A DNA stretch of 64,000 nt from IMG/VR virus record IMGVR_UViG_3300028535_000001; one strand, given 5' to 3'. This document shows, piece by piece, positions 1 through 29,566 of this stretch. How positions within the stretch are numbered: position 1 is the stretch's first letter; every line of letters starts with the position of its first letter. Under the pieces are notes generated by a model. The model worked only from the letters and a program-made list of their open reading frames with translations, made no database searches and was not told where the DNA came from. The stretch comes from a virus. The position numbers and the translations under genes are program-made.

Positions 1-257
1 TTATTGTTATCATCTATAACACTTGCTTTCAACATATCTTGCATTAATGGGTCGTTCATTGTATTTGGATCGTCAATTCTACAACAAGGTAGTAATACAC
101 CTTGATTAGAAACTGCTAAAGCAATTGCGTCTTTAAAACATAAAGGGTCTAACTCAATATCTCCTTTTGCTCTTAATGGTGATTTAGCTCCTAAAGAGTT
201 ATTGATTCTTCTAATATCAGCAGACCTATTAATTCCTCCAATTCTTTTTTTAATCAT
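1..257 (-). CDS. SPASM/twitch-like Fe-S domain protein (partial, runs off window)
   Basis: Manually translated: MIKKRIGG...PLCFKDAIALAVSNQGVLLPCCRID..; C..G.LLPCC is typical of SPASM; start overlaps the stop of the radical SAM gene. Confidence 0.6.
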   Translation of the reverse strand, partial: MIKKRIGGINRSADIRRINNSLGAKSPLRAKGDIELDPLCFKDAIALAVSNQGVLLPCCRIDDPNTMNDPLMQDMLKASVIDDNN

Positions 258-1002
258 CTCCGTTTTTCCTATCAAAACAACCACCCCTTACACACTCCTC
301 AATGGATTGATGTTCGCTATGGTCATTTAATGTACTTTTTGTTTTAGGCTTTAACCAATCATCATCATCTGTCCATCTTGCACTATTAATTATTATAAAA
401 TTAACATCATTATCTTTGGCCATTTTCATTGCTTGCCCAATACTCCTTTCATTATAACTGAATATAATATATTGCCATAATGGTTTTGTGGAAAGATACT
501 TTTTACTTTCTAACATAATCTTAAATAGTTTTTCGCCATCTTGATTTTTTCTATATATTCTACTATCTTCAGGCATGCCATCTATACCAAATATCCAATT
601 TGCTTTAGGGTTTGCTTGAAAGGCATTGATATAATGTTGCATAGGTTTTAAAGATGAAGCTACATGTACTTCAACTTTAGTACCACGTTCTTTTGTGATT
701 TTTAATAATTCGTTTATTTTTGGGTGATGTATTGGGTCTGAATATTGACCACAAAAAGATATTCTTGTAAACCAATCCAATAATTTATTAAATTCAGGTA
801 TTGTTAAATCTCTGCCTGGTACTTTAAGGCCTTTGTATAAGTAACTTCTTTGACGACCACAACGTAAACATTCTAATGGACACCTATGAGATAGATCAAT
901 GTTTAAACGTTTATGTCTTCTATCAAAAAAGGAATTTTCCTTTATTTTGATACCGTGTTCTTTAAAACACATGTCTATCTTTTCTCTATTCGTTTCAATC
1001 AT
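250..1002 (-). CDS. Radical SAM protein
   Basis: CPLECLRC (CxxxCxxC), CGQYSDPIHHP, IFGIDG, WQYIIFSYN motifs. Confidence 0.85.
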   Translation of the reverse strand: MIETNREKIDMCFKEHGIKIKENSFFDRRHKRLNIDLSHRCPLECLRCGRQRSYLYKGLKVPGRDLTIPEFNKLLDWFTRISFCGQYSDPIHHPKINELLKITKERGTKVEVHVASSLKPMQHYINAFQANPKANWIFGIDGMPEDSRIYRKNQDGEKLFKIMLESKKYLSTKPLWQYIIFSYNERSIGQAMKMAKDNDVNFIIINSARWTDDDDWLKPKTKSTLNDHSEHQSIEECVRGGCFDRKNGDD

Positions 1003-1019
1003 AATATAAAACTATTTAG

Positions 1020-1343
1020 TTAAATACTAAAAGATGTTCCACAACCACATGATGATTTAGTATTAGGGTTTTTGAATTGGAAAGAACTACCAAAGATTTC
1101 TTCTTTGTAATCCAACTCCATACCTGCGACATATATTTCAAATAGATTATCTATTACTACTAGATTGTCAACTATAATATCATCTTTAGTTGGTGTCTTT
1201 TCAAATTCGTTTGGTATAAATGACCATTCGTATTCGTGACCTGCACAGCCACCACCTTTTACTTCTAGTCTAACATAATCTACTTTATGTTTTTCTTTTA
1301 AAATATTTAAATGTGCTTTCGCACCTTCCGTTAATGTAATCAT
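1020..1343 (-). CDS. iscA: HesB/IscA-family A-type Fe-S carrier
   Basis: GGGCAG...Y and NPN..SSCGCGTSF signature. Confidence 0.93.
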   Translation of the reverse strand: MITLTEGAKAHLNILKEKHKVDYVRLEVKGGGCAGHEYEWSFIPNEFEKTPTKDDIIVDNLVVIDNLFEIYVAGMELDYKEEIFGSSFQFKNPNTKSSCGCGTSFSI

Positions 1344-1352
1344 AATTTTCCT

Positions 1353-1625
1353 TTAGATAGGCATACCAGTTTGTTTACCTATTTTAGGCTCTTCACCTAA
1401 TATACTTCTATCTTGTTCTGTAGTATTATTTAGGTAAGTTTCATATTGCTCTTTTGTTAAACAATAACATTGACCTACACTAGTAGGATATTTTTTATTA
1501 TACTCTTGACTTATCACCACTGATTGTTGATAACAGTTATCATATGTTTCAAATGGTACTTCGTTGTGTATCGTCTGACAAGCAGTCCCTATACACATCA
1601 TAATAACAAGAAAAAATTCTCCCAT
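1353..1625 (-). CDS. Small exported Cys-containing hypothetical protein
   Basis: Hydrophobic N-terminus, several Cys, AGGA RBS. Confidence 0.6.
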   Translation of the reverse strand: MGEFFLVIMMCIGTACQTIHNEVPFETYDNCYQQSVVISQEYNKKYPTSVGQCYCLTKEQYETYLNNTTEQDRSILGEEPKIGKQTGMPI

Positions 1626-1653
1626 TTTTCGTTCCTCCTAGAACTATCGGAAC

Positions 1654-1962
1654 TTAATTCCGATTTTTTTTACTTAACTCACCTTCATATTGCGCTAATA
1701 GCTTTTTACAGATACCGTACCAATAGATACCCGAGTCTCTTAGCATTTCATTGGAAGATCGTAGACGTTCCAACTTGCGTTCTAAAACATCAAGACGGAC
1801 CTTTGTTAATTTCTTCGTGCCATTATGTAAATGTTCAAGAGTCATAATTATATTATCAATGTCTGTACACGTATAATTCGGTACCTTCGGTGCCTTCTTC
1901 TTAAATGCCAACAAAGCATACTTAATATCGTGATATGTTACTTTGTTATTTTTATGCTCCAC
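1654..1962 (-). CDS. Hypothetical protein
   Basis: ORF with AAGGAG RBS, in line with neighbours. Confidence 0.65.
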   Translation of the reverse strand: MEHKNNKVTYHDIKYALLAFKKKAPKVPNYTCTDIDNIIMTLEHLHNGTKKLTKVRLDVLERKLERLRSSNEMLRDSGIYWYGICKKLLAQYEGELSKKNRN

Positions 1963-2241
1963 TATATCTCCTTACAATTTATTTTTTTATTAATAAATCA
2001 CGTCAGAAATATTAGATATAGAATGAAATAGTTGGTAAATACCAACACTTATATTTATAAAAGATTAGTGTAAAAAGTGAAAATTGTTTTTGCGATTAGT
2101 AATCAATGACCGATCAGTGTCCGGCCTATAGGGCTTTGGAGCCTTCCTTGAAACTCAACACCGTTATATATGTTTTGTAAGATTTATAGGCCTAGTGTCT
2201 AATAGAATAATAATAACAAGTTAATACTCCTAAATACTTGT

Positions 2242-2802
2242 ATGAAATGGATGACCAACGATAAACCAAAGAGTTGTCCTGATAGTAATAATCATTTTAA
2301 ATACCAGAAAGAATCTGATCCTTTATACTACCAGGAACATAACGCCTTTAATGACGAAGAAATAAAACGTATAATAGAATGTGAGAAAACCGATCCTTGG
2401 TTACTTGAAAGATTATACCACTATATGAATAAAGCTAATGATAAAGGTTGGCATTACAGTATAGATGGTGAACAAATACAATTACATAATTATAAACCAG
2501 GTAATCAATACATGTGGCATAGAGACGGAATATGTGGCCACAATAGTGTAATAAAGAACCTTGCTGATCCATTACATAATCTTACAAGAAAAATATCAAT
2601 GACTATATTACTTAATGAACCATCTGAATTTACAGGTGGTAAGTTTCAAATAAAGAAACATGATATAGAAGACTTTACAATAGATATGAAAAAGGGAACT
2701 GTTATTGTATTCCCTGCTTGGTTAGGCCATAGGGTAACACCTATAGAGACCGGCGAAAGACATAGTTTGCCTGTGTTCTTTTATGGAAGACCCTTTATTT
2801 AA
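2242..2802 (+). CDS. 2OG-Fe(II) oxygenase (prolyl-hydroxylase-like)
   Basis: WHRD (HxD), RKISMTILLN, FTGG, H-RVTP..GERHSL. Confidence 0.9.
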   Translation: MKWMTNDKPKSCPDSNNHFKYQKESDPLYYQEHNAFNDEEIKRIIECEKTDPWLLERLYHYMNKANDKGWHYSIDGEQIQLHNYKPGNQYMWHRDGICGHNSVIKNLADPLHNLTRKISMTILLNEPSEFTGGKFQIKKHDIEDFTIDMKKGTVIVFPAWLGHRVTPIETGERHSLPVFFYGRPFI

Positions 2803-3266
2803 GACTTCAACCAAATAATAAAGAAACCTACAATGCTTGCAATCCAGGTCATCCATATATCTTCATAGATAAAGATAGTGTCTAAAGAAGTAATAATAAT
2901 AGGGATAGAAATACTGTTATAATGGCCAATATCCCACAAATATAATATATCTTATTTGCCAGGCTTTTCATTGTTCCACATAATCAGTAAAGCTAATACT
3001 AATAAAAAAGGAAGACTTATCAATAATAAATTTATAGTTAAATCCATTAACATAATCATATACTATTTATGTGATAAAGTCAATGCTCCAATACGTGACG
3101 TTCCGTAGATCAACTTACAGTTGAGGCCTGCTTATCCGGCCACCGGCAATCCTGGAGGAAAAAAATAAGATAAAGGATAATGCTAATGATTGTTATTGCA
3201 AATATAGATTAAACCTGGTGGACCCAGGATCAATAGCGCTGGCATATATGAAAAATTTTATTGAGT

Positions 3267-4538
3267 TTAAGGATTAAGGTCTATCGTAGCCCCTCTATGT
3301 GTTACTGCGCCTGTTGTGTTAGATGTCTTTGTGCCGGCCACATCTTCTTGTTTATTACCTTCTACTAATATTGTGTAATTGCCTCCCACTTTAACATTGT
3401 AATCGCCACCTGCATTTACATTAATTCGGCCATCTTTGGTTACCATATTAATATCACCTTGATCTACTTGTATGTTTATGTTGGCGTTCTTGCCTACATG
3501 TATATCGTAATTGTTTTCTTCTTCGCCATCTTTGTTAATGAATATTTTGTGGCGGCCATTAATAGTAATATCGGAGTTTCCTTTTATATTAGTATTGTGA
3601 GTGCCGGCGATTAACTGATAATTATCGTTGGCCACTTTGGTCACCAGGTCTCCGTTGTTGGTCATTTCATAAGAAGTACCAGAAGTGTGGCGTTCATGTA
3701 TTCGGTAATAATTTGTTCTTACCTCTTCGCCGTCAATAATTTCTATTGTATATGAATCATCAAACTCTTTTATATGGCCTGACTCGGATTCAAACACGTG
3801 GTTATATGGGTAAACGGCATTGTAAGTGTGAGGTGTTATTTCTTCTCCTTCTTCGGATAAAACACCAAGGCCATCGTATTGTATTTTAGGTTCTGACCAA
3901 GAAGTACTATCAGAGGCCAGTATTTCCGATCCATCGGCCGCCGTGAGTAAATCAAAATCGGCCGTTGCAATAGAAACCCAACCTTCGCCAGGTTTATTTT
4001 TATCTAAACGATTTAAAACCCTGGCCGTTAAACTGCCGTGTTCTAATTCTGTATTATGGACTGCGAGTCTATTTGTATCAGTCTCGTTAATGTTGCGAGG
4101 ATATACCGACTTGTGGTAATTGTCATCATCTTCGTTATCGGCTCCGTAATCCTCAATGGCCTTATCTTCAATATCTTCCTCTGATCTCCTAATTGGGTCA
4201 TTAAATCCTACGTCAGGATTGCCATAATATTTCGGTTTACCTGGCAAACTCCCACAAACGACAGGCTCCTGGTGGCCACTGTCACGGAAATATCCCCATA
4301 CCCAACTGCCTTCAACTAAAAAACTCGGTGAAGTCCCAAGGCCAGAAATACCTGGACTCTGCGTAGACAACATCACTGTCGCCCACGGTAAATCGGCCGT
4401 TGTTAATAAACTTTTATTTTCTGTATGAAAACCTAAACACCTTACTCTAAGCCGGCCTGTTTTAATTGGGTCGTGCCTGTCCTCTACGACACCACAAAAC
4501 CATGTAAACTCTGTATTCTTTCCTATAAATTTGGCCAT
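3267..4538 (-). CDS. gp5: Baseplate hub/spike protein gp5 (OB-fold plus beta-helix, no lysozyme domain)
   Basis: WFCGVVEDRHDP..GRLRVRCLG, DLPWA, YPYNHVFESESGH.EFDD, ERHTSGT, C-terminal beta-helix repeats ending IDLNP. Confidence 0.92.
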   Translation of the reverse strand: MAKFIGKNTEFTWFCGVVEDRHDPIKTGRLRVRCLGFHTENKSLLTTADLPWATVMLSTQSPGISGLGTSPSFLVEGSWVWGYFRDSGHQEPVVCGSLPGKPKYYGNPDVGFNDPIRRSEEDIEDKAIEDYGADNEDDDNYHKSVYPRNINETDTNRLAVHNTELEHGSLTARVLNRLDKNKPGEGWVSIATADFDLLTAADGSEILASDSTSWSEPKIQYDGLGVLSEEGEEITPHTYNAVYPYNHVFESESGHIKEFDDSYTIEIIDGEEVRTNYYRIHERHTSGTSYEMTNNGDLVTKVANDNYQLIAGTHNTNIKGNSDITINGRHKIFINKDGEEENNYDIHVGKNANINIQVDQGDINMVTKDGRINVNAGGDYNVKVGGNYTILVEGNKQEDVAGTKTSNTTGAVTHRGATIDLNP

Positions 4539-4595
4539 TGTCTTAAATATTTTCCGATATATGTTTGTTTTTAATCTCTACACTATACGTCATTT

Positions 4596-4862
4596 TTACC
4601 TATTAACTTTATCCTTACGCAAATGGCCTTTATTCTTTACGTGGTCTCTATAGGCCTGCGTATTCTTATTTATTAGTGTGTTATAACCTTTCCCAATGGA
4701 ATAGGCATGCGCTAGCATGACTTTAGCTATTGGCCTACCTCTGATTGCCAGTGAGTTGTGTATTCTCTGTGACCATGAAAGTGTTTTAACAAAGGCCGCC
4801 TTGAGAATAAGGTCTATGTGTCTATAAGGGTTGTTCTCTTTATTATACATTGTCATATTCAT
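4596..4862 (-). CDS. Hypothetical protein
   Basis: AAGGA RBS; lies inside the GGCC-rich zone. Confidence 0.45.
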   Translation of the reverse strand: MNMTMYNKENNPYRHIDLILKAAFVKTLSWSQRIHNSLAIRGRPIAKVMLAHAYSIGKGYNTLINKNTQAYRDHVKNKGHLRKDKVNR

Positions 4863-4990
4863 TGTTCCTTAATCTTGTCTTTAATATGTTATGGTCAAAT
4901 CCTCTCGTCATGGCCTCTTATATGGCCTCCGTTAGTATATCTATCGTCAAAGCGAGCGGAGCGGTCGGAAATTTCGGAGATTCTCTAAGC

Positions 4991-6481
4991 CTATGAGAGT
5001 ACACTTGGTGGACCTCCTTTATTTGCTTCAGTTATTATTGCGTCATCTAAATCATATTGTAATACGTTGATGGCCTCGGCGTTTTCCCTACCTGTAAAGG
5101 TATCTATTTCCTCCTCTGGATATGGAACCCTTACGGCGTCCTTCATACACGTAATCGCCATTGTGTGATTATCTTTAGTAGTATCTATTTTATGTCGTAT
5201 GTTCTTAACCAGGTAGCGTCCAGACATATAGGGATCGTTATCTAAAGGGTTATCAGCACCTGCCGGTTCGTATGACGGAATCTCTAATGCAACTACATCA
5301 CCAGCGGACAATCCTGTGAATCCTCTTGCTGTGAGTGCTACCTGCATTGAGGCGAAAGCCAACTTTTGTGATAATCTTTTGGCCATTGTAGTACCTTTTG
5401 GAACACCTTCAAAATCATCATGTATTTTGGTTGTTGTAGATTTCATAAATGTACGAGTCTCTGCATAATCACTAAATTGGTTACCATGATAGTTTATCAC
5501 TGGCGCCATTGATTTAGTATCTGTTTTACCACCACTGCCATCATGCTCTGTATGGTGTGATTTTTCAAAGTCCAAATTGTAATCATAATCATGTATTGTA
5601 TATGTTTTATCCATTAAATCGTGTGCAATAGTTCTACTTGCAAATACACCATTCCTTAAATTCTGTATTGTGTCATATTGGTTCATTATTTGAAAATTAT
5701 CCACTATCTGCATTTCTTGTATGATATTGGTTACACCAGTACCACCTTTAACTGACCTTGGTTTCTTTTCAAATCGTGCAACAGCAGGTCTAGCCGCTCC
5801 ATCTGTAATCGCCAACATATTTTCTAAACTTCTAAATCTATATCCTGTACTGTCTTCATAGAAAAAATAACCAGCATTATTATATCTACCTGATTCAGCT
5901 GAGTTTCCTAAACTTTGAATAAATTCAAATGGCCTTAATCCTGTTGGCACATACTTACGAGCACCTTTCGTTTCTTCTAATATTAATGTCTTATTGGATT
6001 CTATATCACGTCTGAATATATCCAGTACCATTTGATCTATAGTACCTGTCATAGATCGGTAGATTTTCTTTGTCTCGTTTGTTAATATTTCTTTAGAGGC
6101 AAAATTTAAAACATACATTTGTGTTCTTGGAGCAAGTTCTCGTCTGGCTGATATTTTATATATGTACATAGGGTGGCCGGTCACCGATGTGAAATCAAAA
6201 CCTTTTGCAATACCAGGTGTATTCAGTTTAAATTCTATTCGTTCAAACCCGGTAAGAGGTAAGTGATTGGGAACATTTTGGTTATCTACCACTACTACAT
6301 TACCTGATAGGCCTTTAGTAAATATATCCTCGTATATATTGATTTCTAGTACTTGTGATCTGATACTAATTTTTTTTGGATTACTACCACCTTCAGCAGA
6401 TATATAAGATATTAATTGTATATCTGATAAGGAAAATTGGCCAGCTTTTGTTAATGTGTCAGCGTTTATTTGATCGTACAT
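4991..6481 (-). CDS. Baseplate hub protein (gp27-like)
   Basis: IYEDIF..LSG, FFYEDSTGYRFRSLE, SGRYLVKNIRHKI; between gp53 and gp5. Confidence 0.75.
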   Translation of the reverse strand: MYDQINADTLTKAGQFSLSDIQLISYISAEGGSNPKKISIRSQVLEINIYEDIFTKGLSGNVVVVDNQNVPNHLPLTGFERIEFKLNTPGIAKGFDFTSVTGHPMYIYKISARRELAPRTQMYVLNFASKEILTNETKKIYRSMTGTIDQMVLDIFRRDIESNKTLILEETKGARKYVPTGLRPFEFIQSLGNSAESGRYNNAGYFFYEDSTGYRFRSLENMLAITDGAARPAVARFEKKPRSVKGGTGVTNIIQEMQIVDNFQIMNQYDTIQNLRNGVFASRTIAHDLMDKTYTIHDYDYNLDFEKSHHTEHDGSGGKTDTKSMAPVINYHGNQFSDYAETRTFMKSTTTKIHDDFEGVPKGTTMAKRLSQKLAFASMQVALTARGFTGLSAGDVVALEIPSYEPAGADNPLDNDPYMSGRYLVKNIRHKIDTTKDNHTMAITCMKDAVRVPYPEEEIDTFTGRENAEAINVLQYDLDDAIITEANKGGPPSVLS

Positions 6482-6483
6482 AA

Positions 6484-7008
6484 TTATTCATTTATCAATT
6501 TGTCAAATTCTTCTAATAATACAGGCAAGAAACCTGGGTTTAGTAATTTGATTTTTCTTCTTTGATCTTGTATTCTTTGTTCATATTCTCTATTAGAAAC
6601 TGATTGAGCACCAGACTCATTACTGTTTACCTCTATCATATGTGAATAATCGTTTGATTTGGTTGGACCACTTGATTGTACCTTTTCATAATGATGTATT
6701 GCGTCTGGATTGGAATACTTTGTGTCAACAAAGGATTCAAATGCTCTGAAATCTAAAGGCCAATCATAAAAACCATCGTGACCAGCATTTGTCATTAATA
6801 TAACCCAATGATATTGAGGATCACCAAAATGTTTCATTGCTGTATCTTCAGGTCTTTCACCATTTGGTACATCATACTCTTGGTATAAACTTGCCTCGTT
6901 AATTATCTTATCTCTGATTTTAACTCGTTTGAATATATCGGTAACCTGTTTGTATGTAATATTATCGTTAGAATATTTGCCTTTTGGAAACTTTTCAAAA
7001 TATGCCAT
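6484..7008 (-). CDS. gp53: Baseplate wedge protein gp53
   Basis: YF..FP, GERPEDTA..HFGDPQYHWVILM, WPL, HHYE, RKIKLL. Confidence 0.9.
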   Translation of the reverse strand: MAYFEKFPKGKYSNDNITYKQVTDIFKRVKIRDKIINEASLYQEYDVPNGERPEDTAMKHFGDPQYHWVILMTNAGHDGFYDWPLDFRAFESFVDTKYSNPDAIHHYEKVQSSGPTKSNDYSHMIEVNSNESGAQSVSNREYEQRIQDQRRKIKLLNPGFLPVLLEEFDKLINE

Positions 7009-7009
7009 A

Positions 7010-8179
7010 TTAGAATCCCTCCGCTACAGTATGTTTAGTCATAATTTCTGTTTCACCAAACTCTAAATCCATTTTAATAATAGTTGGCGGTGCGCCTTTT
7101 TCATCTGGTATTAATGATGATACAACACCTTCGGGTGCATAATCAATATTACATGATTTTAAAACACAGCGGCTAACTCTTGGTATATATGAGTTTTCAC
7201 TTTCTCTGTACATATATGTTATTTGAAATTCAGATGGTGTTATGAAATATCCTCCTTGAAGACCATTTGATTGTTCAGGTAACATATGAAATCTTAACAA
7301 TTGTAAAATTTTGTGTACTTGGTCTTTCTCTGACTCATCTTTTGGTGCAAATATAAATGGAAAATTAAATGATCTAAATGGCACAGATTGGAATATCATT
7401 TCTAAATTTTGGTTCTTTGCTTGACCTAATGCTTTGTCTAATGTTTGTCTAGCATTTTCAAAACCTGGTATTATACCAATAGCCCCAAATCCAGCTGACT
7501 TCATTACTTCACCAATCAGTTGACCGCCTTTTTTACCAGCTGTTTTTATTTTATCTATCCAACCAGTTTGATTCATAACAGAACCAATAGCTTGGCCTAA
7601 ATCACCTGCTAAACCTGTTTGTGTATCTTCATAACCCACACTGTAATTAAATTTCATTGACTCTGCTGGCGTATATAATATAATACTATCTGAAATATAA
7701 TTATGCGTATCACCTGTTTTGGATACTAGACCAGAAGATGTTGATCTTAATCTGCTGGATTGGGATATGCCATTTCTTTTTATGTTTGCTATTCTAGTTC
7801 TACTGCCTTTGGGTTTATGGCGAGCTTCAAAACCAGATAGTGTTTTACCACCATCTAATTGTCCATTCTGAAAAGTCTGTTGTTTAAATTTGGATGATTT
7901 GTGAGATACAATATCAAATATAATATAATGGCCGGCACCTAAATTAGATGTTTCATTTGGATAGTATACTGTACCATATTGATATGGATTATTTATAGAC
8001 TCCATATGTGATAATGGACCTGTTGTTCCTATCTCTAACGGCGATTTGTTTAATAGTTTGGCTGCCACTTTGGTTGTTTGACCAGATGAGGCAAAGGATA
8101 ATTTACTAGCAATTGCGCCAGAAACCATGTTACCTATTTTACCTTTAACTATGTTTTTGATCTTGTTTGTCCAAGCCAT
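7010..8179 (-). CDS. gp48: Baseplate tail-tube cap gp48 (start revised to MAWTNK)
   Basis: LEMIFQSVPFRSFNFPFIFAPK, PSEFQI, CVLKSCNIDYAP, LEFGETE; AAGGA RBS and late promoter upstream of 8179. Confidence 0.85.
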   Translation of the reverse strand: MAWTNKIKNIVKGKIGNMVSGAIASKLSFASSGQTTKVAAKLLNKSPLEIGTTGPLSHMESINNPYQYGTVYYPNETSNLGAGHYIIFDIVSHKSSKFKQQTFQNGQLDGGKTLSGFEARHKPKGSRTRIANIKRNGISQSSRLRSTSSGLVSKTGDTHNYISDSIILYTPAESMKFNYSVGYEDTQTGLAGDLGQAIGSVMNQTGWIDKIKTAGKKGGQLIGEVMKSAGFGAIGIIPGFENARQTLDKALGQAKNQNLEMIFQSVPFRSFNFPFIFAPKDESEKDQVHKILQLLRFHMLPEQSNGLQGGYFITPSEFQITYMYRESENSYIPRVSRCVLKSCNIDYAPEGVVSSLIPDEKGAPPTIIKMDLEFGETEIMTKHTVAEGF

Positions 8180-8219
8180 ATTTACTTCCTTTATATATAC
8201 TGGTATATTTATAACGGAT

Positions 8220-8648
8220 ATGAAGAAATCTTTTAAAGGATTATATAAACCAGAGAACCCCAAAAAATATGTTGGTGATGTAAAGAATATAATATACCGT
8301 TCTCTTTTAGAGAGACGTATGATGGTGTATTTAGATAATAGTCACAATATAGAACATTGGGCTAGTGAAGAATTGCCTATTAGATATTATAGTCCCATTG
8401 ATAATAAATGGCATAGATACTTTCCAGATTTTGTAGCAAAGACAACTAAAGGTAATAGGGTAGTAATTGAAGTTAAACCATCACGCCAATGTGTTCCACC
8501 TAAAAAACCAACTAGCAGAAAAACTAAATCTTATATGAGAGAGTCTCTTGAATATATCAGAAATAAGGCTAAATGGCAAGCCGCTACCAAATATTGTAAA
8601 ACTCAAGGTGCTGAATTTAAAATTATTACTGAAAAGGATTTAACCTAA
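8220..8648 (+). CDS. gp4: Head completion nuclease gp4 (start revised to MKKSFKG)
   Basis: KG.YKPENPKKY.GD, YRSLLER, W.SEE, HRYFPDF, IEVKP, N.AKW.AA, KIITE. Confidence 0.92.
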   Translation: MKKSFKGLYKPENPKKYVGDVKNIIYRSLLERRMMVYLDNSHNIEHWASEELPIRYYSPIDNKWHRYFPDFVAKTTKGNRVVIEVKPSRQCVPPKKPTSRKTKSYMRESLEYIRNKAKWQAATKYCKTQGAEFKIITEKDLT

Positions 8649-10117
8649 TCTGTCCAACGACTATCCGAAGTATCTATTATAGTTCCATCTTTTGAATCAT
8701 CTACAACACTAATATTTGCATTTGAAGCTTGACTGTTATCAGTAACTACGTTATTAAAAATGCTTGTATCAATACCTTTTTTTGCTAAATAATCGTTATT
8801 AGCTAAATTCAAAGCCTCAAATTCTGCTACAGCGTCTTTTTGCGCTTTCTTGTCTTCATAAAATTTTTTATTGCTGTTATATGCCAAAGGAACAGTAACT
8901 TCCAGTCCTTTATCAGCCTTATCCATTTCATCTTTGATTGTAGGTATTTTTCCAGCTGTTGCTGTAGACATTAAATCCATTTCTAAATCTGCTATCTTTG
9001 CCGTTAGTTTTGCTATCTTTTCAGGATCTTGGTCATCGGACCAGAAACCACTACCTGGAGCTGATTTAGATTTTTCATCTGCTAATTTATTTTGTAGTTT
9101 TTTAAGTTCATCTGATTTTGCTGCTTCACCTTCCTCATCTACTAAACCTAATTTTCTACCTAACCATGAATATTTGAACCAATCCATCAATTTTTTGAAG
9201 AATTGCCCAATTGCTTTTATCTTTGTTGCAACAAAAACAATAGCAGCAATTACCAATGCAAATTTAGCAATCAATATTAATCTAGCAAGTGAGAAAAAAC
9301 CACCTATTGCTTTTAAACCTTTCCAAAGACCTTTAAATGCTTTTAAGAATATACCACCAGTTAAGAAATTAACTAGTTCTACTGAACCCTTACCTGTATC
9401 TTTCATCATATTAAAAGCTTCACCTATAGCATGAAAAGGTTCCATGAAAGCCATTTTTAATTGATCTAAAAACATAGGCAATCCTTTAGATTTTTGTCCT
9501 GTGTTGGCAGTGACGTTAAGTGTATCGCCTGAAGTATCTTTATCTTTTTTTAATTTATCTAGTTCTTTTGTATTAGCAACTATTCTATCTTTTGTTGTTT
9601 TCTTTTCTTTATTGGATAAACTATCCCCAACCTGTAATTTTTTTCTATCTCTATCTAATTCTGTTTCTATTTTTGTAATATTCTTTTCTTTTAATTTAAA
9701 TATCTTTTCTTCTTGTCTTATTTGTGATCTAGTTAATACTTCAACCTCTTTGGTCTCTTTATTAACACGTGCAACAATATTTTGTTCTCTTAATTTTGTT
9801 ACAGTCTCCTCTGACTCTCTGGCCTTTGTTTCTCTTTGTATCAATAAATCTGCCAACTCTGTACTGTATTCTCTTAAATCTAGACCTAACTTTTCAACCA
9901 ATTTTTCTAATTTCACAATCACTCTTGTAAAACTATGAACAGGACCTTTCTTCAAATCAACTGTTAACTCATTTATCATTTTAGGTATATTGGGTAGAAT
10001 AGTCTTAGCTGAGGCTGCAATTGAGCTGTTAACCTTTGCCTTTATTATCTGACCTAAACTGTCAATCGCTTGTTGTGTTTGGTCTGTACCTTGGTTTTCT
10101 ACTATTGGTAATGCCAT
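8645..10117 (-). CDS. Probable tape-measure/gp29-like protein
   Basis: Long coiled coil plus amphipathic and hydrophobic segments; downstream of gp26/gp51. Confidence 0.5.
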   Translation of the reverse strand: MALPIVENQGTDQTQQAIDSLGQIIKAKVNSSIAASAKTILPNIPKMINELTVDLKKGPVHSFTRVIVKLEKLVEKLGLDLREYSTELADLLIQRETKARESEETVTKLREQNIVARVNKETKEVEVLTRSQIRQEEKIFKLKEKNITKIETELDRDRKKLQVGDSLSNKEKKTTKDRIVANTKELDKLKKDKDTSGDTLNVTANTGQKSKGLPMFLDQLKMAFMEPFHAIGEAFNMMKDTGKGSVELVNFLTGGIFLKAFKGLWKGLKAIGGFFSLARLILIAKFALVIAAIVFVATKIKAIGQFFKKLMDWFKYSWLGRKLGLVDEEGEAAKSDELKKLQNKLADEKSKSAPGSGFWSDDQDPEKIAKLTAKIADLEMDLMSTATAGKIPTIKDEMDKADKGLEVTVPLAYNSNKKFYEDKKAQKDAVAEFEALNLANNDYLAKKGIDTSIFNNVVTDNSQASNANISVVDDSKDGTIIDTSDSRWTD

Positions 10118-18131: not shown

Positions 18132-18470
18132 TTATTCCCCTAAAGTAGTTCTATCAAATGTATGATACATGATACAGGTTGATTGTCCATTTGGAATATC
18201 TACTGTTGCTACTATCTGATTTTCTTTTGAATAATGAGTTACCATCATAACAGGTTGTCCACTTGGTACGGCACCTGCTCTGCCTAGACTAGCATTCTCT
18301 AATTGAAATCCTCTACGTAATATAAAAGCGTGTACGTAATCTGGCTTACCACAAATAACTGGCATGGTACTAGGTGCTAGATTAGGGTTACCTTCGTAAC
18401 TCTCTGGCACTTTTACCTCTGATAGGACTATTGTACTGAAAAGTACAAATAGGAGGATTAGGTATTTCAT
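18132..18470 (-). CDS. Exported hypothetical protein
   Basis: Signal peptide; TATAAATA at 18501-18508 upstream. Confidence 0.65.
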   Translation of the reverse strand: MKYLILLFVLFSTIVLSEVKVPESYEGNPNLAPSTMPVICGKPDYVHAFILRRGFQLENASLGRAGAVPSGQPVMMVTHYSKENQIVATVDIPNGQSTCIMYHTFDRTTLGE

Positions 18471-19153
18471 TACATCTTTTTTTTATTAAGTTCTTCATAA
18501 TATTTATAAAATCCTTGTATTGCTTTACCTAATTTTTCTTCATATGGTGCTTTTTCTTTTACAAAAGGTACCATTGAGCCATCTTCACCAGCAATTAATA
18601 TTACTAGTTGATCTATTTTTTTCTTAAATAATTCTTCATACATTATTGCATAAGCACATGTTTGTAAGAAATAGTTCTCTATCCAAGATTCTTGTCTTTC
18701 TTTGTTTGCTGTCTTGAAGTCTATTACAGAAAGTTTACCATTATATTCTGCAATACAATCCACTTGACCAGCAACGGTCAACTTATGACTGTACATTATT
18801 GTTTCTAAACAATGTATGTTATTGATCTGATCTACGTATGGTTTGATTAGTCTGAACATACCTAAAGGTAACACACTTCTCTCACTTGGTGTTTCGCCTT
18901 TGATATACTGTTCAATTAATGTATGTGTAGATTTGCCTCGTCTGGCTGCTCGTCTCATTTCCCAATTAGCAACATCTTCACCAATACTATCTCGCCATTT
19001 TTGTAGTTCTTTTTTCTTTTGAATACCAAGTACTGTAGTAATTGACGGATAGTTTTTACCATCTATTTCGTAAAATCTGAATCCATCTATTTTTTTACCT
19101 TTAGTCTTTGGTAAAACGTCTTCATTTAGTTTTATAAATTTAAATTTGCTCAT
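18470..19153 (-). CDS. PD-(D/E)XK exonuclease (Cas4/RecB-like)
   Basis: YPSITTVL, RG...H, AGQVDC, IDFKT, Q..AYA. Confidence 0.88.
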   Translation of the reverse strand: MSKFKFIKLNEDVLPKTKGKKIDGFRFYEIDGKNYPSITTVLGIQKKKELQKWRDSIGEDVANWEMRRAARRGKSTHTLIEQYIKGETPSERSVLPLGMFRLIKPYVDQINNIHCLETIMYSHKLTVAGQVDCIAEYNGKLSVIDFKTANKERQESWIENYFLQTCAYAIMYEELFKKKIDQLVILIAGEDGSMVPFVKEKAPYEEKLGKAIQGFYKYYEELNKKKM

Positions 19154-19162
19154 AATGTACCC

Positions 19163-19191
19163 ACTTTAACATAACCAATGTAAATTGTCAA
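19163..19191 (-). promoter_or_regulatory. sigma70-like early promoter
   Basis: TTGACA-17-TAAAGT with extended TG, about 10 nt before the ATG. Confidence 0.55.
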
Positions 19192-19853
19192 GCCTTAAAC
19201 ACTTCGGAAATTGCCCATTCTCTTTCTTTACACCAGAAACAGGTATTACCACAACCAGTTTCAGGTCCTATACATGAAGTTGTCATGTCTAATAGATCAA
19301 CAATACCTTGGTCTTTGAATTCCTGGACAATAAATCTCTTATCAATCTCTATGAAAGGAGTAGTATGATTTATATCTGCTACTCTTTGATTTTTAGAGAA
19401 GTCTTTACCACCTTTAATACGGAATAACTCACCACCAAATGTTTTCTGAACATCTTCAGGTGGTCCTAATGATGTACCATGATATGTATGGTCAATTATA
19501 CCACTTGCTTCTAATTGTTTAACAAGTGGTCTAATGTAATCTTGTTTAGCACCATTTTTACCACCATCTGTATCAAATATTGTAGATAGAGGCCACTTGA
19601 TTGATACCCTTGGACATCGCTTTCTAATATATGGGATTATTTCTGGTAGACCATTTGAGTCACCTGGTGCCCACATATCATAACCATTAAATGGTTGTAT
19701 CTTTATATTTAAACCTTTTTCTCTAATAGTATTAGCTAAAAGATAACATAACAAAGTACTATCAGCACCACCTGACATGGCGACACCGATAGTTTCTTCA
19801 TTTAAATGTTCAAGGTTTAACTCAATTAATCCAAATTTGTTATCATATTTCAT
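19188..19853 (-). CDS. QueC-like PP-loop ATPase
   Basis: MSGGADST PP-loop; PF...DK; TTSC....GCG.CFWC.ER Cys cluster. Confidence 0.72.
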   Translation of the reverse strand: MKYDNKFGLIELNLEHLNEETIGVAMSGGADSTLLCYLLANTIREKGLNIKIQPFNGYDMWAPGDSNGLPEIIPYIRKRCPRVSIKWPLSTIFDTDGGKNGAKQDYIRPLVKQLEASGIIDHTYHGTSLGPPEDVQKTFGGELFRIKGGKDFSKNQRVADINHTTPFIEIDKRFIVQEFKDQGIVDLLDMTTSCIGPETGCGNTCFWCKEREWAISEVFKA

Positions 19854-20808: not shown

Positions 20809-21126
20809 TTATTTTGCTCCTTTTTTACTTTGTCTTGCTAGGTGTTTTTTGATTACTTTCTTTGTTGCTATATCTTTCGCCGATCTTTTTCCATATCTAT
20901 TTGCTAATTCACTTCCTGGGTGGGCTTCTGCTATACGTGATAGATTATCTTTCCAACCACTATCGTTCTTCATATTAACACCTAAAACACCACCAACTAT
21001 ATTTATGGGTTGTGGTACTTGTGTTATATGCTTATTTTTCTTCATATAAATCTCCATTTCTGCAATGGACATCATTTCTGTAAATTCTTTTTTATTTCTT
21101 TTATTTCTAAACGTGTAAATTGGCAT
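20809..21126 (-). CDS. FmdB-like regulatory protein
   Basis: MPIYTF, GWKDNLSRIAEAHPGS. Confidence 0.6.
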   Translation of the reverse strand: MPIYTFRNKRNKKEFTEMMSIAEMEIYMKKNKHITQVPQPINIVGGVLGVNMKNDSGWKDNLSRIAEAHPGSELANRYGKRSAKDIATKKVIKKHLARQSKKGAK

Positions 21127-21520
21127 TAGCAATCCTTATAATTCTGTTTATTAATTCACCTAATCCATTTTGTCTTTGCATAGTAAGTAATTCTCTTATG
21201 CCTAATGGAACAAAACTATCTACTGTAAGATTGGCAACTTCTTCTACTGGTTGTCCATTAACTATTTCAGTTACCACTTTGGCAGTACCTCTAGTTATGT
21301 GTGCCTCACCATCTATTTGATACATCATACTATTATCTTCTCTCTTTCCACCAATAATCCATAATTTACTAGCACAACCATGTATTCTATTTTCTTCTGT
21401 CTTAACAACTTCTGGTAATGCCTCTACGTCTTTTGCTCTATCTACCAAATATTGTATTCTGTCAATTCCTGTTAATGTCTTTAGATTATCACCAGCTTCT
21501 TTAATTCTTTCAGTTATCAT
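21107..21520 (-). CDS. sufE: SufE Fe-S assembly sulfur acceptor
   Basis: ENRIHGCASKLW, A.ITRG, LGI.ELLT.QR.NGL. Confidence 0.88.
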   Translation of the reverse strand: MITERIKEAGDNLKTLTGIDRIQYLVDRAKDVEALPEVVKTEENRIHGCASKLWIIGGKREDNSMMYQIDGEAHITRGTAKVVTEIVNGQPVEEVANLTVDSFVPLGIRELLTMQRQNGLGELINRIIRIANANLHV

Positions 21521-28760: not shown

Positions 28761-29258
28761 TTAATCTTTATCATCATCTGTTTCTTCTGTAAAAAATTGG
28801 TTGGCACCATTTGATAGGTCGTCAACTTCTTCTTTTACCTCTTTACTAAATGGTCTAGTTGGTGTACGTTTAGCTTCTATTACCCTACTATAATCTATTT
28901 TAGCTGATCTATGACCATTCTTTAATTGTTTTATATCTACTAATTTGTCTGTTAAGGAGTGAGACGTATGTTTCATTCCAAAATCTCTGTAGATTAAACC
29001 TCTTAATGTGTCTACCACCATAGCCAAGTCTTTTGTAAATGTTAACTTATCTGTTTTTATGGCCATATCTAGAAAACTGTTTATTAATTTCATAACTATA
29101 TCATCTACAGCAGATTCAATATATTGTTTTGTTTGCTGTTTCTTTAATTGATCGTTAAGTTTGTTTTGAATTTTTTGACTTTGTTGATCTTTACCTACAC
29201 GCCTTACAATTTTATTTGTAGGAAATTGAATAATGTTTTTAATATCGTCATCGCTCAT
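28761..29258 (-). CDS. Hypothetical protein
   Basis: NIIQFP N-terminus; coupled ORF. Confidence 0.7.
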   Translation of the reverse strand: MSDDDIKNIIQFPTNKIVRRVGKDQQSQKIQNKLNDQLKKQQTKQYIESAVDDIVMKLINSFLDMAIKTDKLTFTKDLAMVVDTLRGLIYRDFGMKHTSHSLTDKLVDIKQLKNGHRSAKIDYSRVIEAKRTPTRPFSKEVKEEVDDLSNGANQFFTEETDDDKD

Positions 29259-29566
29259 ATTTTATAAAACGTATATTTAACTGTTAATTCTTCCCACACT
29301 TTTATAGGTCGTTCAGTATATAAAAAATACTTATTATAGTCTTCAACATCTTCACGCCCTAATACACCTCTCACCTTTATACAATTTGGTTTATCACTAT
29401 GATTGATAAAACCACCTAACGGTGTTCTTATAAGTTCATCTTTAACAACTATATGTGATAATCCTAAATTAGTATCTTTCTCAATAAATTTTGTTGTAAA
29501 TATTCCTTGACCCTCTATAGAAGATTTTTGAATTATTAATCCGTCTGGTAATGGTTCATACGTCAT
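29255..29566 (-). CDS. Minimal SET-domain protein
   Basis: S.IEGQGIF, FINHSDKPNC, EELTVKY. Confidence 0.88.
   Translation of the reverse strand: MTYEPLPDGLIIQKSSIEGQGIFTTKFIEKDTNLGLSHIVVKDELIRTPLGGFINHSDKPNCIKVRGVLGREDVEDYNKYFLYTERPIKVWEELTVKYTFYKI

Follow-up and report, generated by a model that had tools for sequence, protein, structure and literature searches.

The replication origin oriE of bacteriophage T4 lies inside gene 5 and is associated with the antisense early genes repEA/repEB and with 12-nucleotide (nt) iterons, for which no role in origin function has been proven (PMC3016281). In the T4 genome, the origin is annotated at 79355 within gene 5 (77959-79686), and six iterons at 24-nt spacing take up about 170 nt of the part encoding the beta-helix. 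Here, we describe an island of GGCC sites centred on the baseplate gene gp5 of a T4-like pelagimyophage, found in a 64,000-nt stretch of IMG/VR record IMGVR_UViG_3300028535_000001 (hereafter the window), the nearest cultured relative of which is Pelagibacter phage Mosig EXVC030M, grown on Pelagibacter HTCC1062 (47% protein identity in gp5). As in T4, short repeated DNA elements lie on the same baseplate gene, are retained despite its coding function and are conserved in position among relatives (PMC3016281), but they consist of a 4-bp palindrome distributed over about 1.9 kb together with flanking DNA, whereas T4 carries 12-nt direct repeats and an early promoter.

The GATC clusters of P1 pac and Escherichia coli oriC (Dam/SeqA) are likewise 4-bp palindromic sites of a methylation type that are locally over-represented. 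Their zones, however, cover 160-250 bp of non-coding DNA or of pacA and are served by a known methylase and by recognising proteins, whereas the island extends over 1.9 kb, mostly at silent codon positions of a structural gene. GGCC itself is the target of M.Ssp6803II, a cyanobacterial orphan methylase of Synechocystis producing regulatory GGm4CC, an epigenetic signal that affects transcription, replication and repair (PMC6560206); this modification is genome-wide (about 38,000 sites) with no local clustering described, and no PF02086 homologue was found in Mosig or the contigs searched. In E. coli, Dcm/Vsr provides a case in which a methylation-site word is over-represented without selection for function. 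That case is genome-wide and depends on a C5 methylase and on Vsr acting on T:G only, whereas the island is local and cannot be explained without transversions, and the phage sequences searched contained no such genes. Pelagimyophages and cyanomyophages belong to the most abundant T4-type viruses of the ocean; their cis-acting elements, including replication origins and packaging signals, are unmapped, and we found no published description of the island.

The GGCC island at the gp5 locus

The gp5 module was shown to carry an actively maintained, clade-specific array of about 25 GGCC sites of the form H-GGCC-D, about one per 80 bp. A first, sequence-only reading of the window had counted about 25 GGCC in about 1.95 kb, and this proved exact, with 25 sites running from 3125 to 5072 at the coordinates it had listed. 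The window contains 99 GGCC in total, the other 74 being distributed over the remaining 62 kb, which corresponds to 12.8 sites per kb in the island and 1.19 per kb elsewhere (Poisson p 1e-17); when 99 sites were placed at random 5000 times, the best 1951-nt window held 15. GGCC tops all 256 tetranucleotides for enrichment in the island (11.5-fold over the rest of the window), and the observed number is 5-8 times higher than expected from local composition (3.2 sites under a mononucleotide and 4.9 under a first-order, dinucleotide model). GC content is raised locally (0.39-0.40 versus 0.32 for the rest of the window), but it is ruled out as the cause of the cluster because palindromes of the same composition stay low in the island (CCGG 5, GCGC 3, CGCG 0). 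The spacing of the sites is more regular than chance (coefficient of variation (CV) 0.58 versus 0.94 for random placement, p 0.002), and the CV lies under the random value in five of six relatives, reaching nominal significance in four; no significant helical period was detected among the island sites. The tails which the same reading had described on both sides are real, though weak (Table 1). Outside the island, 63 sites in 57 kb amount to about 1.8 times the mononucleotide expectation, so that GGCC is not depleted there. A second GGCC cluster at 37.1-38.7 kb was accounted for by codon composition (z about 0).

Within genes, the sites come from silent choices: GGC is used before a codon starting with C, codons ending in G are used ahead of GCC, and CGN replaces AGA following Gly. 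The 16 sites of gp5 comprise nine x-Ala junctions (xxG-GCC) and seven Gly-x junctions (GGC-Cxx), and use codons seldom found in this genome (ACG, GCG, CTG, GTG, and CGN instead of AGA). Synonymous shuffles of gp5 that preserve the protein and the gene's own codon usage gave 4.6±1.7 sites, none of 1000 reaching 16, and GGCC is the top tetranucleotide of gp5 under this null (z 6.0). When codon junctions at which the protein permits GGCC are counted as opportunities, 16/22 (73%) are used in gp5, 4/8 in orf88, 6/34 in orf496 (z 2.2), 1/9 in gp53 and 56/930 (6%) in the remaining open reading frames (ORFs) of the window, 84 ORFs having been scanned in all (Fisher p 1e-14 for gp5 versus the window background). 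All seven gp5 Gly codons preceding a C-starting codon are GGC. More generally, codon use in gp5 shifts from 0.11 to 0.46 for Gly GGC, from 0.11 to 0.65 for Ala GCC and from 0.75 to 0.29 for Arg AGA, with CGN and AGG gaining, and there is no shift for Lys, Glu, Asn, Asp, Phe or Ile. The enrichment, for which a codon-shuffled null had been suggested at the outset, survives correction for local GC and codon use, and is not a by-product of protein sequence, composition or codon use.

Conservation in related genomes

Gp5 relatives encoded by 80 IMG/VR loci (labelled with L-numbers) were compared, Mosig being L081 and the cultured phage HTVC008M L093. In a maximum-likelihood gp5 tree, the window belongs to an 11-row clade (support 100/99) together with L003, L004/5, L006, L008/9, L012, L013, Mosig and L007. 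A GGCC excess is found in gp5 of all clade members but L007 (6-17 sites, z 2.1-6.6); L007 has one GGCC, and Mosig shows a weak island of six sites. No gp5 GGCC excess is present in the sister clade and more distant groups, with 0/19 opportunities used in HTVC008M. GGCC is the only tetranucleotide outlier (z 5-6) in clade members, and the outgroups have no tetranucleotide outlier at all; an apparent CATG excess in L040-L044, considered as motif switching, was gone under codon shuffles. Orthologous loci, which the sequence-only reading had proposed as a test, therefore do carry the enrichment in related genomes.

Four-fold silent-site identity between subclades is 0.23-0.40, i.e. saturated, and opportunity use is 38-74% in each clade lineage versus 0-11% in outgroups, while the co-occurrence of GGCC at shared positions matches that expected from independent high per-site use. 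At conserved residue pairs, the clade has GGC-CGN, ACG-GCC and YTG-GCC, and the outgroups GGG-CGT, GGA-CGC and TTG-GCT, with the next silent position free. Since silent sites are saturated and the island is nevertheless present per lineage, each lineage keeps its island, which is not an inherited leftover; its span is 1.83-2.14 kb (about 1.9 kb) in every lineage. Together, these data establish that the island is real and strongly non-random and that an ongoing force conserves it.

It is barely credible that the island is a compositional leftover of a GC-richer, horizontally acquired gp5 cassette, or an assembly chimera. The locally raised GC (0.39-0.40 against 0.32) and the mosaic nature of gp5 alleles would fit such an origin, but more than 20 metagenomes yielded the identical sequence in independent assemblies, the gp5 tree is congruent with neighbouring genes, the island persists per lineage despite saturated silent sites, and words of the same composition are not enriched. 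An identical gp5 protein is encoded on at least 23 contigs from independent marine metagenomes, and the six of these that were compared match the window at about 100% identity over 9-14 kb, with few single-nucleotide polymorphisms among them; given so many independent assemblies of the gp5 region, the sequence is not an assembly artefact. Identity ranks of relatives obtained from gp53 and orf496 broadly match those from gp5, and therefore gp5 was not imported. As far as sequence data can do so, the leftover or chimera explanation is already refuted. A raised GC content at third codon positions (GC3) of gp5 (0.39-0.48 versus about 0.2 in neighbours) occurs without GGCC excess across most of a wider pelagimyophage clade (L007, L017, L018, L020, L025/26, L028, L032/33 and HTVC008M), and is not seen in L019 or L021-L024. 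The general GC3 island predates, and is separate from, the GGCC-specific signal.

A regional feature of duplex DNA

Island sites are located in gp5, orf88, the end of orf496, intergenic DNA and downstream DNA, which bears out the initial claim that both coding and non-coding DNA are covered. In the non-coding and hypervariable flanks, GGCC occurs directly in the sequence. In the gap of about 450 nt between the hub gene and gp5, where a small ORF is not recognisably homologous between subclades (hypervariable), clade members have 9.4 GGCC per kb as compared with 0.86 per kb in far flanks (p 2e-24), and in the 250 nt past the gp5 stop they have 5.4 per kb (p 2e-6), whereas GGCC is about zero in both places in outgroups. 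GC3 in the island is 0.31-0.40 versus about 0.20, and falls at about 5400, within orf496, from 0.36 to 0.21; only the last 400 nt or so of this gene (4991-5400) belong to the GC3/GGCC island. The late transcription unit of about 5 kb starts at a late promoter (TATAAATA, 8206-8213, minus strand) about 3 kb upstream of the island and proceeds on the minus strand through a tail-tube-cap-like gene, gp53, the gp27-like orf496, orf88 and gp5; the island forms its final 2 kb, with no late promoter at the island edge. We read the island as a regional feature at the level of double-stranded DNA which does not match gene or transcript boundaries.

A signal at the RNA or translation level, by which GGCC would act in the gp5 mRNA via structure, a binding or cleavage motif or a codon-pair effect, is very unlikely. 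Most sites do lie in one late operon (orf88, gp5) and the codon shift is centred on Gly GGC and Ala GCC, as such a signal would have it, but codon preference alone predicts 4.6 sites, not 16. In two lineages, the gp5 mRNA folds no more stably than its synonymous shuffles do (z about -1), and an Rfam scan of window positions 1-9000 gave no match. The island also occupies only the last 2 kb of the 5-kb unit with one edge within a gene, its sites extend beyond the gp5 stop and, weakly, reach a gene of opposite orientation, and the perfect palindrome with its symmetric flank rule points to duplex DNA. At the DNA level, the signal is conserved and of measurable strength, with 73% of silent opportunities used versus a background of 6%.

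Flank rule and word avoidance

All 99 GGCC sites of the window fit H-GGCC-D, with never a G on the 5' side and never a C on the 3' side. GGSCC (GGGCC/GGCCC) is absent from both strands of the 64 kb versus 19±5 in dinucleotide shuffles, and GGWCC is present in normal numbers (40 versus 32 expected). By simple counts per lineage, the flank rule is broken at 7/318 sites in non-redundant clade loci, at 16/61 in outgroups and at 13/23 in T4. The rule is clade-specific and holds over the whole window, beyond the island, and no longer consensus was found past the H/D flanks. Judged from these letters, the recognised unit looks like H-GGCC-D, and sequence-specific DNA enzymes typically leave such a pattern. 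On the plus strand of the 64 kb, GGGG and CGCG are also missing (about 20 and about 41 expected from base composition), and CCCC occurs 34 times. Such strong word avoidance across the 64 kb may point to restriction-type pressure.

Another explanation is that the island is a defence-related zone, in which the sites would be targeted by host or competitor restriction, phosphorothioation or modification and might serve as a decoy, as a programmed nick/break zone or as a zone that has to be modified. A 4-bp palindrome whose flanks are strictly limited is characteristic of restriction/modification enzymes, and the complete absence of GGGCC/GGCCC next to normal GGWCC counts would also fit, but restricted phages lose sites, whereas GGCC is undepleted outside the island and near saturation inside it. 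For restriction-site avoidance, a genome-wide GGCC depletion is lacking, and it is the sub-word GGSCC that is totally avoided. We know of no plausible benefit in concentrating targets in an essential structural gene, and no cognate enzyme was found in the sequences searched, which makes a defence zone improbable. Dnd phosphorothioation (PMC6435447) and N4-cytosine methylases (PMC6560206) are both known to act on GGCC, which would be in keeping with it. The same holds for a marine metagenome study that detected GGCC as a methylation motif in viral genomes alone (PMC9516812); GGCC-recognising factors thus exist in marine viruses, a point that also favours the loading or marking zone proposed below. 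The supplement of that study has no GGCC entry.

Recombination and possible biased repair at gp5

The gp5 module swaps short patches between co-circulating lineages. On both sides of a recombinant patch (Table 1), the window is 97-99% identical at the nucleotide level to L004, and the middle domain of gp5 (3670-4180, the position of the lysozyme domain in T4) occurs in at least two strongly divergent allelic forms (37-58% nucleotide identity between the window and L004). By a manual count made with no statistical test, about 15 of the 80 IMG/VR contigs start inside gp5 or at most 400 nt upstream of it, which fits high microdiversity at the locus.

These observations bear on the main rival explanation, according to which heteroduplex mismatches arising between co-infecting variants at a gp5 recombination hot spot are fixed toward G/C, and especially toward GGCC, by a very-short-patch-like activity tied to a GGCC-specific enzyme, the sites themselves being functionless. 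Recombination within gp5 is seen directly, as a patch of about 700 nt resembling L003 in an L004-like backbone; gp5 and its upstream gap are hypervariable; the island crosses gene borders and has weak tails on either side. In the wider clade including HTVC008M, gp5 GC3 is up without GGCC excess, as in generic GC-biased conversion, and GGC and GCC codons are favoured even where GGCC is impossible. Moreover, no functional GGCC-recognising protein came out of the search described below. Such repair would nevertheless need a GGCC-specific repair enzyme, and Vsr and C5 methylases are absent from the phage sequences searched, while SAR11, the host group, is reported to be almost without restriction-modification (PMC7029224, PMC9516812). 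Very-short-patch repair makes only T:G to C:G changes, and the outgroup states require transversions (GGA/GGG to GGC, GCA to GCC). Deamination products are not clearly depleted in gp5 (GGTC at 1/35 and GACC at 6/30 opportunities, which are small counts), the known Dcm/Vsr cases are genome-wide rather than local, and neither the regular spacing nor the constant 1.9-kb span is predicted. On this evidence, we regard biased repair as somewhat unlikely; sequence data alone cannot separate it from an origin or recombination zone. Should it be true, biased gene conversion of a sequence-specific kind would be seen in a virus with unusual clarity.

Possible functions of the array

Restriction/modification-type enzymes and symmetric DNA-binding dimers use targets of this type, short palindromes with a flank rule, which points to a zone for loading or marking. 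We therefore favour, at a probability of roughly 0.4, the reading that the array is a loading or marking zone for a putative GGCC-specific DNA-acting protein of the phage or its host, the best guess being an origin or recombination-initiation zone. Under this reading, the protein would load on, or mark, the evenly spread array, and the array would mark the start of replication or recombination, as at T4 oriE in gene 5. A protein-binding array remains the most general reading that fits. If a protein does recognise the array, the island would be a rare kilobase-scale cis-element written via synonymous sites of an essential gene, and would imply a GGCC-specific factor in a host group thought to be nearly devoid of restriction-modification. 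Either outcome, recognition or biased repair, bears on the reading of codon usage and of 'GC islands' in phage genomes.

Several results weigh against a loading zone. Searches for PF00145, PF01555, PF02086, Vsr (PF03852) and TGT/DpdA gave no match in the complete Mosig genome and two IMG/VR contigs, in which no C5, N4/N6 or D12-class methylase was found; no GGCC-recognising protein is among the Pfam calls for about 55 kb of the window, and a regular-expression scan of the window ORFs, with the other 100 kb or so of the genome outside the search, revealed no methylase motif. On the phage side, the GGCC methyltransferase that the sequence-only reading had thought worth looking for was thus found neither in the window nor in Mosig or the two contigs. 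In SAR11, methylation is reported as GANTC only (PMC9516812, PMC12570018), and the genomes are reported to be almost entirely without restriction-modification systems (PMC7029224, PMC9516812). GGCC is no denser in the non-coding than in the coding DNA of the island. Finally, the clade member L007 lacks the island and Mosig has only a weak one, so that the island is dispensable or replaceable.

The small ORF upstream of gp5 was considered as a GGCC-recognising protein and set aside, as it has no recognisable homology across subclades and no Pfam or PHROG match. Elsewhere in the window, a PD-(D/E)XK exonuclease gene beside gp59 (18470-19153, minus strand; PHROG 298, 9e-67) adjoins a gene for a weakly QueC-like PP-loop protein (19188-19853, minus strand; Pfam QueC 5.5e-5), and a 103-aa SET-domain protein (a protein lysine methyltransferase fold, by a JGI Pfam call) is encoded among early genes at 29255-29566 on the minus strand. 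Lone hairpin-like GGCC-N5-GGCC sites (GGCCTWYGTGGCC) lie outside the island at 9472, 63473 and 94009 in Mosig and at 7059 in contig G001.

The initial suggestion of a cis-acting zone stands in so far as a DNA-level zone is concerned, as supported by the shuffle nulls, the presence of sites in non-coding and non-homologous DNA, the disregard of boundaries and the saturated lineages. Its more specific forms fared unevenly. That the loading zone would mark a replication origin or recombination-initiation site at the position of T4 oriE is, by analogy, a possibility we hold with considerable doubt. The position in gene 5 offers a precedent, but the T4 iterons are without counterpart here, and the antisense rep genes appear to be so: no T4-like family of direct repeats is present in window positions 2800-5400, and antisense ORFs at the island reach only 40-58 aa. 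The only antisense sigma70-like promoter directed into gp5 (TTGCCA-17-CATAAT, 2956-2984, plus strand) is not conserved in L001/L003, and T4 gene 5 shows no GC3 rise. GC skew was uninformative, being dominated by gene orientation.

Alternatively, the island could be a zone of programmed nicks or breaks, cut by a GGCC-specific nuclease or nickase of host or phage. The cuts would provide DNA ends and nicks for recombination-dependent replication of the T4 type and for loading of the sliding clamp which activates late promoters, so that the island would act as an origin or enhancer made of restriction-type sites and written in a structural gene by silent codons. We consider such a zone distinctly improbable.

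A methylation-gated packaging site, suggested in the sequence-only reading by analogy with the GATC cluster of P1 pac, is very improbable. It would share with P1 the cluster of a short palindromic site of a methylation type, and a conserved single-copy 17-mer lies at the downstream end of the island (Table 1). The zone of about 1.9 kb is, however, about 12 times longer than P1 pac (about 160 bp) and is situated in the baseplate module, flanked by a gp27-like gene and accessory genes and distant from any terminase gene; no methylase, including cytosine methylases, was found in the searched sequences. Packaging in T4-type phages is of the headful type and uses no unique pac site. The 17-mer is moreover late-promoter-like (TATAAATG) in most relatives, reading TATATTTG in the window, and the other late promoters of the window are without the conserved extension that follows in the 17-mer. 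The island-less L007 has it with one mismatch, and in L009/L010, which do have an island, it has diverged, so that the 17-mer is separable from the island.

Gene context and neighbouring elements

The features of the region are listed in Table 1. Gp5 consists of an OB domain and a C-terminal beta-helix and is without a lysozyme domain; orf88 has no Pfam or PHROG match.

Table 1. Location of the GGCC island and of genes and elements around it in the window.
Feature	Coordinates	Strand	Description
GGCC island	3125..5075	none	mean gap 81 nt, largest gap 198 nt; raised GC3 and CpG
Weak downstream tail	2123..2924		5 GGCC in 0.8 kb; spans a plus-strand 2-oxoglutarate (2OG)-Fe(II) oxygenase gene and small minus-strand ORFs
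Weak upstream tail	5381..6758		6 GGCC in 1.4 kb; in orf496 and gp53
DNA past the gp5 stop	3100..3266		last two island sites (3125, 3138); relatives also have GGCC here, at other positions
17-mer CTATAWWTGCAATAACA	3191..3207	-	single copy in the window; conserved 50-75 nt past the gp5 stop
gp5, baseplate hub / cell-puncturing spike	3267..4538	-	423 aa; Pfam Gp5_OB 2.8e-19; PHROG 430
Recombinant patch in gp5	3400..4100		about 700 nt; window 95-99% like L003, only 37-58% like L004
orf88, small basic ORF	4596..4862	-	between the hub gene and gp5; 4 GGCC
Intergenic DNA between orf496 and orf88	4863..4990		two GGCC 12 nt apart (4912, 4924)
orf496, gp27-like baseplate hub / tail protein	4991..6481	-	PHROG 350 1.4e-77; PHROG 196 baseplate hub

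In Mosig, the late-promoter-like 17-mer after gp5 (21118-21134) faces genes on the opposite strand and would therefore drive non-coding or antisense late RNA. Members of the island-less sister clade (L017, L019, L026 and L032) have another conserved non-coding element, TA(C)ATAAGGGATCTGTT..GAYATAGA, 60-110 nt past the gp5 stop. In the window, the 464-nt stretch from gp5 to the 2OG oxygenase gene contains small hydrophobic ORFs of 33 aa (2952-3053) and 46 aa (2799-2939) on the minus strand, which follow a sigma70-like promoter (TTGACT-17-TATGAT, 3083-3055); this pair of ORFs (2799-3053) is conserved in L001-L005 and looks like an early membrane-peptide cassette.

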